Below, piece after piece: positions 37,572 through 46,829 of a stretch of DNA of 64,000 nucleotides. The notes under the pieces are model-generated. The model was not told the origin of the DNA. It did not search any database and worked only from the letters and a program-made list of their open reading frames with translations. Positions within the stretch are counted from its first letter, which is position 1; every line of letters begins with the position of its first letter. Source of the stretch: Dehalococcoidia bacterium (GTDB taxonomy: Bacteria > Chloroflexota > Dehalococcoidia > Lucifugimonadales > JADFKI01); NCBI GenBank assembly GCA_965242555.1, contig CBDESO010000008.1, positions 547,577 to 611,576 of the forward strand, in the 5' to 3' direction. The position numbers and the translations under genes were made by a program.

Positions 37572-38693
37572 TTACCGAGTTAGACGCTGGCGCAAAGCGT
37601 CTAATAGAAACTGCGAGAAACGGTCGTCCGGATTTGTAAAATCGCATACGAACACGCGCGATAGCGCATCACTCACTTCAGGAGTCGGTTGCGTGTTTTG
37701 GTTATACGAAAAGCAGGCGGAGAAGTGTCCGTGCTCTTCGAAGTCTCTTCGCTTGTCGCTCATATCCTCGCGCGATGCGATACCCAATTCACCACGATTA
37801 ATAGGGTTAGTCGACGGGAAACTTTTGGAATCCATTGTCCAAAATATGGAAAGATACCCTGCCTGCATCAAGGCTTGGCTCATCGGCACATCATCAGTGC
37901 GCCTTTCAGCGAGACTAGCCTTGACATGAATGACGCCTAGCAATCGCTCTTTGCCATCCATATGATACAGAATTAGCGCATCGGCTTTATCGGGCACTAT
38001 CCTAGAATCTCGGATAACGCCCAAGTGAGCGGCTTTCTCTGCTTTGTTGCTTGTCTTGATGAATAGGCGATTCCGGCGGAGGAATTCCCCATAATGATCC
38101 ACCAAGACACGCTCCAAAGCCCACCCGCTGGCGCGTTTCCAGCTCTGTTCTAGGTTCAACCTCGCATTAGCCGCCGGATGGTTCGCGCGGTCGCAATACG
38201 CGCGACCTATCAAGAATGTCCACAGATCTGAGGGATTAGCGTTTTGCCATAGTTCAGCGACGCGAATAAAGGCGCGAGCCACCGCGCCCGACCTATCCCT
38301 GCCGGTTGCAAGTGAATTTTTGAGTACGCCTATTACTTCGTTATATTGAGCCAGAGTTGCGCCGCTTAAGAAATACTCTGCGTCATATCTGTCATACTTA
38401 AATCTGACAGTTAGGCCGTCAGGCGTCTCTGTCGCCGTTACGCCAACAGGCAATTGGGGGATAGCCCCCTCATCTTCGCCAATTCCGGTGAATAGTCTTG
38501 CGGGCGCAACTCCCAAAGCCAAAGCCAGATTTATTATCGCTGACAGAGAGGGATTGCGTTCACCTCGCTCGATGCCGCCAACATATGACCTGTCTAGTCT
38601 GGCGGCAGCCGCAAGGCTTTCCTGGCTAAGCCCTAAGGCTTCCCGAAATTGCCGAACATTTCTGCCGAATGTGAACTGCTCTGAATTATCCAT
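37572..38693 (-). CDS. XRE-type HTH fused to a putative PD-(D/E)xK restriction endonuclease
   Basis: The N-terminus has VRQFREALGLSQESLAAAARLDRSYVGGIERGERNPSLSAIINLALAL. The C-terminus has IVPD-x19-VIHVKASLAERR. It is convergent with the methyltransferase with 4 nt between the stops. Confidence 0.55.
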   Translation of the reverse strand: MDNSEQFTFGRNVRQFREALGLSQESLAAAARLDRSYVGGIERGERNPSLSAIINLALALGVAPARLFTGIGEDEGAIPQLPVGVTATETPDGLTVRFKYDRYDAEYFLSGATLAQYNEVIGVLKNSLATGRDRSGAVARAFIRVAELWQNANPSDLWTFLIGRAYCDRANHPAANARLNLEQSWKRASGWALERVLVDHYGEFLRRNRLFIKTSNKAEKAAHLGVIRDSRIVPDKADALILYHMDGKERLLGVIHVKASLAERRTDDVPMSQALMQAGYLSIFWTMDSKSFPSTNPINRGELGIASREDMSDKRRDFEEHGHFSACFSYNQNTQPTPEVSDALSRVFVCDFTNPDDRFSQFLLDALRQRLTR

Positions 38694-38799
38694 AGCAGGT
38701 ATTCTGACAACTTCGCTCAGATAAATCTACGGACTAATCGTATCATCTAGCGGATCCGGCAATGCGATAACCGAACCCGACCCGAATTAGCCCATCCCC

Positions 38800-42885: not shown

Positions 42886-43170
42886 CTACCCGTCAAGAAA
42901 GAGCTTGATGAGAATGGCGGCTAAGCCTACCACCGAGGCGCTGCCGAACCCTATTACCGCATAGAAAAGCCTGTCAATCCCGTCGTTAAGTTGATCTATT
43001 CGCGCGTTCATAGCGCGGAAATCTTCCCTTGTAGCGCGAGCATTCTCCCTTGCCTGACGACTCAGTTGCAGCAAAATCTGCAAATGCTCCTCTATTGCGG
43101 CGGGAATAGCGCCGGAAGTCGCAGATGCCTCTACGCGCCCTGGCGCATCTTCTTGCATATCAGTTGCCAT
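42886..43170 (-). CDS. Small tail-anchored coiled-coil membrane protein (same architecture as 2198 and 2510)
   Basis: 94 aa with an acidic N-terminus, a helical RAMNARIDQLNDGIDRL and a C-terminal TM FYAVIGFGSASVVGLAAILIKLF. Confidence 0.5.
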   Translation of the reverse strand: MATDMQEDAPGRVEASATSGAIPAAIEEHLQILLQLSRQARENARATREDFRAMNARIDQLNDGIDRLFYAVIGFGSASVVGLAAILIKLFLDG

Positions 43171-43314
43171 AGCCTAATCACCTCGCCGCCATTCTATCAT
43201 CTATGTCAAGCGATAGCCAAATTAGGCGGCGAGTAGGCTATAATTAGCATAGAACGCGCAAGAAATTTCGCCTAGCAACCTAGCAAGACGGCAAGCGAAG
43301 AGAGGGTTTTGGTC

Positions 43315-46300
43315 ATGGCAACCACTTATCCCCATATACGGCGGTATCACGCGGATCTGCGGCGGCTGGTCGAGGCGGGCGGATCGGCGAATGAACTGCA
43401 CACCCGGCGGGCGTTTGAGAATTGCCTGGACGCATATTGCCGCGAGCATTCGGACGGGCTGACGCTGGTGGCGGAGCAGAGGACGGCGGCGCAGGTGGTT
43501 CCGGACGGGACGGTGCGGGACGCCCTCAGGATGGCGCGCGGGTATTGGGAGGCTAAGGACATTCAAGATGACCTGGACGCGGTGATTCAGGACAAGCTCA
43601 GCAAGGGGTATCCGCGCGATAATATCATCTTTGAGAACACGGATAAGGCGGCGCTGTTTCAGAATGGCGTGGAAACGATGCGGGCGGATATGTCTAGCGA
43701 GCGCGAGCTGCATCGCCTGATCCGGCGCTTTCTGGATTATGAGCTGCCGCAGATCGAGGAGTTCAGGGCGGCGCAGCGGCAGTTCAAGGCGGATTTGCCT
43801 AGCGTGCTGGGCAATCTGCGCGAGGCGGTGGAGGAGGCGCAATTGGACAACGCGGGCTATCAAGCCGCCGCCGCGCAGTTCCTGGCGCTGTGCCAAAAGA
43901 GCATCAGCCCGGAGGTGGCGGACGCCGATGTGCGCGAGATGCTGCTGCAGCATATCCTCACCAAAGACATATTCCTGCGCGTGTTCGCGGAGGATCAGTT
44001 TCACCGCGAAAACAATATCGCCGCGCAATTGGACGCGCTGGAGCGCACATTCTTCACGGGCGATACGCGCCGCCAAGCGATTGACAGGCTGCGCGCCTAC
44101 TACGGCGTTATCGGCAGGGCGGCGGACGAAATCGCCGATTACGCCGAAAAGCAGGGGTTCCTCAAGGCGGTTTATGAGGACTTCTACAAGGCGTACAACC
44201 CCGCCGCGGCGGATAGGCTGGGCGTGGTCTATACCCCCAACGAAGTGGTGGACTTCATCATTCGCGGCGCGGACTGGCTGCTGCAGCGGCACTTCGGCAA
44301 GACGCTGGCGGATATGGGCGTGCAGATACTCGACCCCGCCACCGGCACGGGGACTTTCGTCACGAACCTGATAAACCACCTGCCGGCGGATCGGCTGGAG
44401 TACAAATATCTCAACGAAATCCACGCCAACGAAGTGGCGATTCTGCCCTACTACATCGCCAACCTGAACATAGAGTACACCTACAAAGAGCGCGCCGGGC
44501 GATACAAAGAATTCCCCAATCTGGTATTCGTGGACACGCTGGACAACCTGGACTGGGAGGGCGCAACGGGCGGCGCGGTTCAGCGGCAGGGCGCGCTTGA
44601 GCTGGGGGGGATGTCGGCGGACAACTGGGTGCGGCTGGGGCTGCAGAACGAAAAGCCGATAAGCGTGATTATCGGCAATCCGCCGTATAACGACGGCGCG
44701 ACGCTTTGGGGCGACGGCGGCGCGAACAGGGCGTATCACGAAATAGACAAGCGCATTAGGGAAACCTATGTCGCCGAAAGCTCAGCGCAAAAGACGCATC
44801 AGTACGATATGTACAAGCGATTTATCCGGTGGGCGTCGGATAGGCTTGAGGATGACGGGATCATCGCGTTTGTCAGCAACAACGCATTTTTGGATTCCCG
44901 CCAAGACGACGGGTTTCGCATGGTGGCGTCATATGAGTTCAACGAACTTTGGGCGGTGAACTTGAAAGGCAACGCGCGAACCAGCGGCGAGCGCCGCCGG
45001 CAAGAGGGCGGGAATGTCTTTGACGACAAAATCCGCGTGGGAGTGGCGGTGTACTTCCTTGTGCGGCGCAAGCGGATGCACACTTTCAAGATGTACTACA
45101 ACGCTGTTGACGATTACGCGAAAGCGGCTGACAAGCTCGCGTATCTGCGCGGGCGCAACATTACCGATCTCAAATTCACTGAGATCATTCCCGACGACAA
45201 GGGCAACTGGCTCGAAAAGTCAAACCCCGATTATGAGCGGTTGCTGCCGCTTGCAAATCAGCAAACCAAGTTTGCCAAAACGCTAGACGAAGAGCGGGCG
45301 GTATTCAAGCTCATCACACCTGGGGTAAATACAACCAGGGACGAATGGGTGTACGATTTCGACGTTTCCAATCTGCGGAACAAAGCGCTGTTCTTTGCGG
45401 ATAAATACGCCGAAATGATAGATGGCGGCGATATTTCTAGTTCCGCTATCAAGTGGAGTCACTCGCTCCAAGATAACCTTAAGCGGGGCGAGCGCATCGT
45501 CTTTAACGACGCCAAGCGCATACGGGCAAATTACCGTCCTTTCGTTTCCAAATGGCAATATGCCGAGCCGCTGATGAATGACAGGCTCACCCGCAATCAC
45601 TACGAAATGTTCGGCGCTGACTTGAAACAGCCGAACTCGGTCATCAATTTCTGCGTCAACCATAAGGCGTTCTATGCGCTGGCGTCTGACAAACTGACCG
45701 ACTTGCATTTCACGGGAGATACGCAATGCCTGCCGCTCTACCGCTACACGGCGGATGGCGAGCGGGTATGCAACATCACGGATTGGGCGGTGGAGTTCAT
45801 CAACGCGCACTACCGCAAAGATATGGGGGAGTACTTCGAAAAGGCGATTGGCGCCGACGCCATAACCGCCGAGGACATATTCGCGTATGTGTACGCCGTG
45901 CTGCACGACCCGGTGTATCACTACGATTACAAGGTTGACCTGTTGCGTGAATTCCCTCGGATACCGCTGTACAGCTACTTCGCCAGTTGGACGAAGATGG
46001 GGCGCAAACTGCTGGATCTGCATCTGGGCTTTGAGAGCGTAGAGCCGCATCCGCTGGAGCGCGTTGAGGGCGAATGCCCGGCGGGCAGGACGCTGCTGCG
46101 GGCGGATAAGGAGCGGGGGATCATTCGGATAGACGAGCGGACGACGCTGGCGGGGGTGCCGGCGAATGCCTGGCGATACAAGTTGGGCAGCCGGTCGGCG
46201 CTGGAGTGGGTGCTGGAGCAGTACAAAGAGCGCAAGGCGCGGGACGCCACGGTGGCGGCGCGGTTCAACGGGTATCGGTTCGCGGATCACAAAGAGCGGG

Positions 46301-46479
46301 TGATCGATCTGCTGGGGCGGGTGTGCGCGGTGAGCGATAGGACGATATACATCTTGGACGGGATGGCGTACTGGGATGGCAAATATCTGGTGGTGATGGC
46401 TGAGCGCGATAGGCTGGAATTGACGGGCATGGGACTGAAATCTATATTCAGTTTTCCCAAAAAGGACGTGCCGTGGTAG
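43315..46479 (+). CDS. Single-chain type IIG (MmeI-like / helicase-less type ISP-like) restriction-modification enzyme: nuclease + N6-adenine methyltransferase + target-recognition region
   Basis: D-x9-E-x-K (43519-43557), DPATGTGTF (44332-44358), NPPY (44677-44688) and a C-terminal REFPRIPLY region. Length is 1054 aa from ATG 43315. Confidence 0.8.
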   Translation: MATTYPHIRRYHADLRRLVEAGGSANELHTRRAFENCLDAYCREHSDGLTLVAEQRTAAQVVPDGTVRDALRMARGYWEAKDIQDDLDAVIQDKLSKGYPRDNIIFENTDKAALFQNGVETMRADMSSERELHRLIRRFLDYELPQIEEFRAAQRQFKADLPSVLGNLREAVEEAQLDNAGYQAAAAQFLALCQKSISPEVADADVREMLLQHILTKDIFLRVFAEDQFHRENNIAAQLDALERTFFTGDTRRQAIDRLRAYYGVIGRAADEIADYAEKQGFLKAVYEDFYKAYNPAAADRLGVVYTPNEVVDFIIRGADWLLQRHFGKTLADMGVQILDPATGTGTFVTNLINHLPADRLEYKYLNEIHANEVAILPYYIANLNIEYTYKERAGRYKEFPNLVFVDTLDNLDWEGATGGAVQRQGALELGGMSADNWVRLGLQNEKPISVIIGNPPYNDGATLWGDGGANRAYHEIDKRIRETYVAESSAQKTHQYDMYKRFIRWASDRLEDDGIIAFVSNNAFLDSRQDDGFRMVASYEFNELWAVNLKGNARTSGERRRQEGGNVFDDKIRVGVAVYFLVRRKRMHTFKMYYNAVDDYAKAADKLAYLRGRNITDLKFTEIIPDDKGNWLEKSNPDYERLLPLANQQTKFAKTLDEERAVFKLITPGVNTTRDEWVYDFDVSNLRNKALFFADKYAEMIDGGDISSSAIKWSHSLQDNLKRGERIVFNDAKRIRANYRPFVSKWQYAEPLMNDRLTRNHYEMFGADLKQPNSVINFCVNHKAFYALASDKLTDLHFTGDTQCLPLYRYTADGERVCNITDWAVEFINAHYRKDMGEYFEKAIGADAITAEDIFAYVYAVLHDPVYHYDYKVDLLREFPRIPLYSYFASWTKMGRKLLDLHLGFESVEPHPLERVEGECPAGRTLLRADKERGIIRIDERTTLAGVPANAWRYKLGSRSALEWVLEQYKERKARDATVAARFNGYRFADHKERVIDLLGRVCAVSDRTIYILDGMAYWDGKYLVVMAERDRLELTGMGLKSIFSFPKKDVPW

Positions 46480-46829
46480 GGGATGTATTTAGGGCTCCCT
46501 TTCCATTCGCGGACTCGGACGAATCCAAAATACGCCCGGTGGTTGTCGTGGCTGATGCGCGGGAAGGCGATGAGATGGATTGGGTAGTTTGCTCGGTAAC
46601 CAGTCAAGAACCAATCAGTCTTGACGTGGCGATACCCATCGTCCAAGCCCACTTTCAAGAGGGAAGTTTGCCGCTTGATAGTTGGGCGCGTCCTAATCGT
46701 CTGCAAACGATAAACGAAGAGCGGTTCATACGCCTAGAGGGAAGGCTCTCCGACGCCAAGACTGCCGAGATAATCGCCGCAGTGCGCGCGCTGTTTGACG
46801 CCGGTGACTACGCGCCGCCGGCGCTGTGA
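46473..46829 (+). CDS. MazF/PemK-family toxin-like protein with no adjacent antitoxin gene
   Basis: GDVFRAPFPFADSDESKIRPVVVVAD...WVVCSVTSQ...LPLDSWARPNRLQTINEERF fits the PemK/MazF pattern. The GTG start overlaps the upstream TAG. Confidence 0.7.
   Translation: MVGDVFRAPFPFADSDESKIRPVVVVADAREGDEMDWVVCSVTSQEPISLDVAIPIVQAHFQEGSLPLDSWARPNRLQTINEERFIRLEGRLSDAKTAEIIAAVRALFDAGDYAPPAL

Follow-up and report, generated by a model that had tools for sequence, protein, structure and literature searches.

The anticodon nuclease PrrC, a 'guardian' of restriction–modification (RM), is kept latent by the type Ic RM enzyme EcoprrI (PMC1484252, PMC12707154), and MazF-mx of Myxococcus xanthus is a solitary toxin (PMC2701414). 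The literature searched recorded no partner toxin for the type IIL enzymes DrdV or MmeI, no type IIG/IIL enzyme with a coupled MazF/PemK or ParE toxin and no antitoxin fused to an RM enzyme. Here we analysed a 64-kb stretch of a Dehalococcoidia bacterium genome (GCA_965242555.1, contig CBDESO010000008.1, positions 547,577 to 611,576; the whole stretch is referred to as the window), in which a gene for a single-chain RM protein is followed directly by a gene for a MazF/PemK-fold protein of 118 amino acids (aa). On balance, sequence comparison makes it likely that the C-terminus of the RM protein is a swappable fused antitoxin, or a tether, for the toxin encoded directly downstream, the two genes together forming one module. 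An earlier note on this DNA had described the gene pair and the apparent absence of an antitoxin gene. It missed the discrete C-terminal tail of the RM protein (residues 1017–1054), which is absent from DrdV and from MazF-less paralogues, and it missed a second version of the module built from RM and ParE.

The tail (MAYWDGKYLVVMAERDRLELTGMGLKSIFSFPKKDVPW) lies past the end of DrdV (1029 aa) and of the matching PADLOC model, both of which finish at residue 1016 of the window protein. The tails of relatives are 40–56 aa long and usually strongly acidic and Trp-rich, with the consensus MAYWxGxxLVVxGDRDKxEWxMLGLxxxFSxPEDxEWxAxWxEx and invariant residues at tail positions M1, A2, W4, L9 and R15. 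The ratio of non-synonymous to synonymous substitution rates (dN/dS) of the tail was 0.32, calculated from its first 26 codons, which do not overlap the toxin gene. No DNA-binding antitoxin domain was found in the tail (no Pfam domain, no PDB relative), leaving those of the RM enzyme as the only DNA-binding parts. Against the PDB, the tail profile (A4) gave nothing significant, the best match being T4 Dmd (E = 0.39) over 22 residues (GDReeiEW...). T4 Dmd is an antitoxin against RnlA/LsoA.

Tail and toxin occurred together. We compared 89 loci from Dehalococcoidia/Chloroflexota metagenome-assembled genomes (MAGs), scoring the tail as present when its hidden Markov model (HMM) gave at least 20 bits. 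Both elements were present in 61 loci and both absent in 18; seven loci had only the tail and three only the toxin. Five of the seven tail-only loci were frameshifted or truncated remnants, one lay at a contig end and one had an intact tail. The three toxin-only loci, together with L072, formed a subclade with a shortened tail (MAYWxxGxLxxxGDRGT...). RM proteins without the toxin typically ended a few residues past the DrdV-equivalent end, and those lacking both elements were scattered over at least nine positions among tail- and toxin-bearing RMs in a neighbour-joining tree of RM cores (calculated without bootstrap). This scatter argues that the association is not the effect of a single clade, and tail and toxin appear to have been lost together at many separate places in the tree.

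Co-variation between the two elements was also apparent. Evolutionary distances of the toxin correlated more strongly with those of the tail (r = 0.45) than with those of the whole RM core (0.32) or of the adjacent last 160 RM residues (0.27), and the partial Mantel correlation of tail and toxin given the core was 0.41 (permutation P ≤ 0.0005). Mean net charge was −7 for the tail and +1.3 for the toxin, and the charges of the two were anticorrelated (rho = −0.47, P = 3e−4, n = 55), also after removal of the window's own clade (rho = −0.35, P = 0.012), in which the two charges are inverted. The window MazF-like protein itself has a net charge of −9 (family mean +1.3), carries the acidic residues REGDEMD inserted ahead of Trp37 and is extended at its C-terminus (DAGDYAPPAL).

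The case for a fused antitoxin module at the RM C-terminus is made most strongly by sister loci: two unrelated toxins are paired with two unrelated tails, and one of these tails recurs in a free-standing partner protein. Seven sister RMs (L015, L036, L039, L044, L052, L068, L082) carried a different tail, built around the motif DPDEGLE and unrelated to the MazF-type tail. In four of them (L036, L039, L052, L068) the next gene belonged to the ParE_toxin family and abutted or overlapped the RM stop codon; the other three had no adjacent ParE. At three of the four loci ParE_toxin scored 41.6, 35.9 and 36.6 bits (Pfam gathering score 23), and the ParE of L039 was found with a custom HMM (110 bits). 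The same genomes encoded free-standing proteins of 71–83 aa whose C-terminal half carries the motif DPDEGLE...P..EV.R..GL, and at least three of these (L044, L048, L068) lay directly upstream of ParE paralogues, in the position of an antitoxin. Profile comparison matched the free-standing proteins to the DPDEGLE tails of the RMs over 45 columns (hhalign probability 98%, E = 3.1e−13), and a single tail–protein pair shared 52% identity over 42 aa (BLASTP). At the level of sequence, the DPDEGLE tail thus demonstrably descends from, or is held in common with, a stand-alone ParE partner protein. This comparative evidence favours the earlier note's suggestion of an RM protein in the role of the antitoxin, and the ParE parallel argues for a generic growth-arrest effector, and against a specialised RM subunit, as the small downstream protein.

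Small genes also piled up directly 3' of the RM–toxin modules (L016, 7470–7856; L044, 8802–9908; L048, 7539–8530; L068, 7502–7999; L091, 5578–6102). In L044, L048 and L068 these were a free-standing DPDEGLE-type protein followed by a ParE-like gene, and in L091 an 87-aa open reading frame (ORF) without a Pfam match followed by a ParE-like gene. The region in L016 held a DPDEGLE protein, with no ParE found.

The small window protein is, judged by profile, predicted fold and conserved catalytic residues, a MazF/PemK family member, as the earlier note had read from its N-terminal pattern. Pfam PemK_toxin (PF02452) matched it with 49.6 bits (gathering score 23.1, E = 5e−13) along its full length (residues 3–108 on profile positions 3–109 of 109); neither NCBIfam nor PADLOC gave a match. 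An AlphaFold2 model built with 16 homologues had a mean predicted local distance difference test (pLDDT) score of 83.5 and suggested the SH3-like barrel of the MazF/CcdB fold. Foldseek returned 75 PDB matches to this model at E ≤ 0.001, and all 50 of the matches listed were MazF, headed by MazF-mt1, Bacillus subtilis MazF and Staphylococcus aureus MazF (template modelling score ~0.7, E ~3e−6). Arg21, Asp36, Cys40, Thr43, Arg73 and Lys96 were each 100% conserved among 57 toxin family members. Arg21 and Thr43 aligned with the catalytic R29/T52 of Escherichia coli MazF and R25/T48 of B. subtilis MazF, and in the PDB search the Arg position also aligned with Mycobacterium tuberculosis MazF-mt1. 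The toxin gene had a dN/dS of ~0.33, a rough value since dS was near saturation. Given the MazF fold, the invariant Arg21/Thr43 pair and this dN/dS, the toxin looks active and does not resemble a decayed or inactive one.

Obligate linkage is equally what a stable holoenzyme would show, and the MazF-fold protein could be a non-toxic RNA- or single-stranded-DNA-binding or regulatory subunit of the RM enzyme, with the tail as its docking site only. With a net charge of −9 the window protein is more acidic than RNA binders usually are, and a DNA-binding antitoxin domain for autoregulation is missing, both as such a subunit would allow. We nevertheless consider it improbable. The catalytic Arg and Thr are kept in 57/57 sequences, sister RMs place the unrelated classical toxin ParE at the same site with its own antitoxin-derived tail, RM pseudogenes keep tail and toxin, and DrdV works without such a subunit (bioRxiv 10.1101/2021.01.06.425610). 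The earlier note had left room for an orphaned or inactive toxin as well as for a non-toxic accessory; both are disfavoured by the catalytic residues, the dN/dS and the swapping of the toxin family in sister loci.

Linkage of the two genes was conserved. The toxin gene lay directly 3' of an RM gene of this type in 12/12 contexts retrieved from the toxin side (39–100% identity), which include L001–L010 and L094; L095 was too short to judge. The upstream genes of RM architecture encoded 935–1093 aa and usually overlapped the toxin gene, and flanking genes differed in at least six of the loci, which indicates that the pair moves as a unit. From the RM side, a scan of one genome per species gave 80 loci, every one of them in a MAG of Dehalococcoidia or of other Chloroflexota, and in ~55 of these the family HMM identified the toxin gene as the next gene downstream, on the same strand. 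A metagenome scan started from the toxin alignment gave two loci, one of which (L094) again showed the RM–toxin pattern. On the strength of conserved linkage and purifying selection we rejected chance adjacency or an orphan toxin.

Other genes of interest were found around these modules. Six tandem 118-aa genes of the PaREP1 family, a HEPN-domain subfamily (PMC2701414), follow the RM–MazF module of L001 (6616–8979). PIN-domain (VapC-like) genes lie just upstream of the module in L005 (2093–2814), L009 (1439–2271) and L091 (1–267), two of them with a small adjacent ORF, and add to the clustering of toxin–antitoxin (TA) genes around these RM genes. At three tail-less RMs the same 3' place was taken by other defence-type genes: an SLFN_AlbA_2 protein overlapping the RM stop by 28 nt (L030, 7105–7536; 78.7 bits), a weakly ThsB-TIR-like ORF scoring 19.5 bits, below the gathering score (L033, 7214–7615), and a PDDEXK_3 nuclease (L045, 7524–7889). 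The RM 3' end may generally serve accessory effectors as a place to dock or insert.

Among 56 relatives, 50 had a junction of RM and toxin genes in the range −19 to +6 nt, most commonly a 16-nt overlap. Translational coupling, which the earlier note had proposed for the window, is supported, and the linkage is conserved. A conventional antitoxin gene was indeed lacking: between 46300 and 46900, on both strands, no ORF of at least 20 aa suited as mazE was found between or after the two genes, and the RM–toxin locus gave no Rfam match and no conserved intergenic region. The place upstream of the toxin where a separate antitoxin gene of the AbrB/SpoVT or ribbon–helix–helix (RHH) type would stand is filled by the RM ORF, as it is in all 12 toxin-side contexts.

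Neutralisation from elsewhere, by an unlinked MazE-type protein or an unrecognised antisense or type III RNA, with the tail merely lengthening the RM ORF for coupling, would also account for the missing gene. Our analysis covers 64 kb of the source genome, and the solitary MazF-mx of M. xanthus, with its non-adjacent neutraliser, is a precedent. The module, however, occurs in at least six different contexts with nothing else conserved around it, and the window holds no Rfam match, conserved intergenic region or second MazF-like gene (family HMM). Coupling, moreover, needs no conserved residues, yet the tail has a dN/dS of 0.32, invariant positions and co-variation with the toxin. We regard this explanation as very improbable.

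Broken RM genes provided a further comparison. A word-index search with the tail profile gave 33 small ORFs, and all four whose contexts were inspected were pieces of disrupted RM genes. In L009 a GAG codon had become a TAG nonsense codon (43x circular contig), in L091 there were several frameshifts (24x coverage), the gene of L092 was frameshifted, and that of L093 was disrupted at 7x coverage, possibly through assembly errors. In each of the four, both the toxin gene and the ORF that begins at the conserved Met and covers the tail were intact. Retention of tail and toxin in broken RM genes is what addiction to the tail predicts.

The intact Met-to-tail ORFs also keep alive a variant in which the neutraliser is a peptide of 38–56 aa translated in frame from Met1017 (46363), which would give the locus three products, with one gene nested in another. 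This Met was invariant in 40/40 aligned full-length tails (A3), and for L009, L091 and L092 gene callers give ORFs of 45–56 aa that start exactly at it, with the toxin intact. The residue is nevertheless Leu in the short-tailed L017, which still keeps its toxin, and no conserved Met begins the tails of the ParE type. By inspection there was no convincing Shine–Dalgarno sequence before the Met, the window's upstream sequence (CTGGACGGC-ATG) being imperfect and too close, and an invariant Met may equally be a structural residue. A nested antitoxin of this kind is in our judgement unlikely.

Several observations weigh against a fused antitoxin or tether. The tail matched no antitoxin family in Pfam or the PDB, and an AlphaFold2 model of the last 100 RM residues gave a hint of a hairpin plus helix that was too weak to use (pLDDT 48.8). 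The acidic GAGGAG codons at the end of the tail may partly serve as the toxin's ribosome-binding site. One subclade (L017, L038, L057, L072) kept the toxin with only the first 25–27 tail residues. The window's own pair is charge-inverted (tail +1, toxin −9) and hence atypical; the Mantel and charge statistics are uncorrected for phylogeny, and, as tail and toxin are adjacent, co-transfer alone could yield part of their co-variation. Some of the 'broken' RM genes may be assembly errors. Finally, no free-standing gene for a MazF-type tail was found by the word-index search, in which four of the 33 ORF contexts were viewed, or by an exhaustive tail-profile search, whose hits were dominated by the conserved RM segment that precedes the tail and had become part of the profile.

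In a metagenomic protein (P0105, 123 aa) the tail was joined in frame to a MazF-like sequence comprising the N-terminal two thirds; an artefact, a deletion or frame-shifting could each explain this. The toxin is read in RM frame −1, which in many cases is open ahead of the toxin start. A programmed frameshift yielding an RM–MazF fusion was considered, and no slippery site was found.

If the tail is a fused antitoxin or tether, the module could work as follows. The RM and toxin genes would be co-transcribed and the MazF-fold endoribonuclease made by coupled translation from the same mRNA. The toxin would dock on the C-terminal tail and be kept inactive on the RM protein. Once the tail-bearing protein is removed or no longer supplied, through gene loss, phage host shut-off, proteolysis or possibly inhibition of the RM enzyme by an anti-restriction factor, the freed RNase would cleave RNA and arrest growth. 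We infer binding, toxicity, trigger and biological role alike. One role could be addiction, which would make the single-chain RM gene hard to lose; a second, not exclusive of the first, would be a guardian or abortive back-up layer behind restriction, like PrrC–EcoprrI and PARIS (PMC1484252, PMC12707154). More broadly, we see an even chance that the DrdV-like type IIL RMs of Dehalococcoidia form an undescribed 'RM-anchored toxin–antitoxin' class, in which the RM C-terminus is a fused antitoxin cassette of at least two unrelated types, one cognate to MazF and one to ParE, that tethers and silences the toxin encoded downstream. The growth-arresting effector would be set free when the RM protein is lost, shut off, degraded by proteolysis or inhibited.

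The features of the locus are listed in Table 1. Re-reading of the sequence reproduced the ORF coordinates, the three motifs, the GTG overlap and the 42-nt gap to ccmA that the earlier note had given. The RM ORF runs from ATG 43315 to TAG 46477–46479, with TTG 43309 as an alternative start, and the toxin-like ORF stops at TGA 46827–46829.

Table 1 Positions of features at the RM–toxin locus, numbered from the first nucleotide of the window.
Feature	Position	Strand	Basis or remark
RM gene, 1054 aa, type IIL/IIG single chain, DrdV homologue	43315..46479	+	Pfam, PADLOC and PDB matches
Nuclease motif D69-x9-E79-x-K81	43519..43557	+	Read from sequence; aligns with the N-terminal nuclease domain of DrdV
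S-adenosylmethionine (AdoMet)-binding motif I, DPATGTGTF	44332..44358	+	Kept in 90/90 homologues
Methyltransferase catalytic motif IV, NPPY	44677..44688	+	Kept in 90/90 homologues
Type_ISP_C target-recognition domain, residues 663–999	45301..46311	+	Pfam PF18135, E = 7.4e−75
RM C-terminal tail, residues 1017–1054, 38 aa; proposed fused antitoxin or toxin-docking element	46363..46476	+	
Promoter-like TTGACG-17-TATATT inside the tail-coding region, doubtful	46420..46448	+	10/12 matches, 25 nt before the toxin start
GTGGTAG, toxin start overlapping the RM stop	46473..46479	+	Read from sequence; translational coupling
MazF/PemK-fold toxin-like gene, 118 aa, GTG start	46473..46829	+	Pfam PF02452, AlphaFold2, Foldseek
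Arg21 codon, MazF catalytic Arg equivalent	46533..46535	+	Kept in 57/57 family sequences; invariant in alignment A2
Thr43 codon, MazF catalytic Thr equivalent	46599..46601	+	Kept in 57/57 family sequences

The earlier note's reading of the large protein as a single-chain type IIG RM enzyme was upheld, as type IIL/IIG, by Pfam (ISP_coupler, N6_Mtase, Eco57I, Type_ISP_C), by PADLOC (REase_MTase_IIG, E = 1.9e−289) and by its closest solved structure, the type IIL enzyme DrdV (7LO5/7LVV; phmmer E = 1.2e−282 over residues 8–1016). Its domains run from an N-terminal PD-ExK nuclease through an ISP coupler and a gamma-class N6-adenine methyltransferase to the Type_ISP_C target-recognition domain and the extra tail. 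The D, E and K of the nuclease motif were kept in 89/90, 90/90 and 90/90 homologues, respectively, and the protein also contains REFPRIPLY. The type ISP enzymes LlaGI/LlaBIII matched only its coupler, methyltransferase and target-recognition part (residues 188–1017), and no helicase domain was found by Pfam or PDB matches; since type ISP enzymes match only from the coupler onward, the protein lacks their helicase. By sequence, the enzyme belongs with DrdV and MmeI in the type IIL family rather than with type ISP.

Regulatory signals were sparse. The TATAAT that the earlier note offered as the operon promoter is present at about 43238–43244 and lacks any −35 element passing the promoter scan, so this promoter is not supported. 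Promoter-like sites in the region were no commoner than chance (three found versus 2.5 expected). By inspection, the site inside the tail-coding region was not kept in more distant relatives. No terminator was found after the toxin gene, whose stop lies 42 nt before the ATG (46872) of a ccmA-like ABC-transporter gene. The module is flanked on one side by a major facilitator superfamily transporter gene and a small divergent ORF and on the other by a ccmA/ccmB-like ABC-transporter pair, then enolase. Its G+C content (0.51–0.62 versus 0.64–0.70 in the flanks) fits horizontal acquisition. Locus L004 was syntenic with the window on both sides of the module. The divergent ORF (42886–43170, minus strand) encodes 94 aa with a hydrophobic C-terminus and no Pfam match, is faced by a minus-strand promoter-like site at 43220–43191, and has an 87-aa ORF at the matching place in L004 (2430–2693). 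A second G+C dip occurs at 38000–38750 of the window (0.51–0.53 versus ~0.63–0.68 nearby).

If the proposed role of the tail holds, this would be, as far as the literature searched shows, the first antitoxin element built into a restriction enzyme, joining RM and type II TA systems through a testable interface of ~40 residues. Single-chain type IIL enzymes alone have no obvious means of post-segregational killing because restriction and modification decay together, and the module would offer these genes a way to become addictive and to guard restriction against phage countermeasures. It would also suggest a second, evolutionarily independent design for a 'guardian of restriction' besides PrrC and PARIS. 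The natural swap between MazF- and ParE-type tails and the RM pseudogenes with tail and toxin are ready-made experimental controls, and the design may explain many 'orphan' MazF or ParE annotations beside large defence genes.

Compared with MazEF, PemIK and Kis–Kid, the locus has the same toxin fold, the same catalytic Arg/Thr and a proposed neutraliser that is likewise encoded directly upstream and translationally coupled. Unlike in those operons there is no separate antitoxin gene, the proposed antitoxin being the end of a 1054-aa enzyme; no AbrB/SpoVT or RHH domain is present, so classical autoregulation by conditional cooperativity would not apply; and no sequence similarity between the tail and MazE, PemI or Kis could be detected. 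In most relatives the putative neutralising segment is C-terminal, acidic and Trp-containing, in which we take it to resemble the C-termini of MazE. By its sequence the module is not a canonical MazEF operon. With DrdV (7LO5/7LVV) and the MmeI family the RM protein shares domain order, PD-ExK, DPxGxG, NPPY and Type_ISP_C, whereas DrdV ends where the window's tail starts. In M. xanthus, MazF-mx is neutralised by the transcription factor MrpC, and both cases present a MazF without a mazE gene and a neutraliser, here proposed, that is a protein with another main job. MrpC, however, has no genetic linkage to its toxin and does not act as a defence enzyme, and the pair involves neither a dedicated fused tail nor translational coupling. 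In CapRel-SJ46 (PMC9712102), which functions in phage defence, an antitoxin element likewise sits within a larger polypeptide, as proposed here; there, toxin and antitoxin form one chain triggered by a phage capsid protein, whereas here an RM enzyme bears the antitoxin-like element and the toxin forms a chain of its own.

The closest parallel is PrrC–EcoprrI, in which an RNase is encoded in an RM operon and, as is proposed here too, is kept latent by association with the RM protein and used as a second line when restriction is defeated. For the present module, tail–toxin co-occurrence and co-variation support silencing by the RM enzyme indirectly. PrrC, however, is an ABC-ATPase-type anticodon nuclease inside a multi-subunit type I locus, the silencing surface of EcoprrI is not a dedicated fused antitoxin-like tail, and PrrC activation by T4 Stp has been shown experimentally. 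Here the effector is of the MazF or ParE type, the RM enzyme is a single-chain type IIL protein and the proposed tail is discrete and swappable. The module would work like PrrC–EcoprrI with an effector not homologous to PrrC, a relationship of analogy rather than membership.

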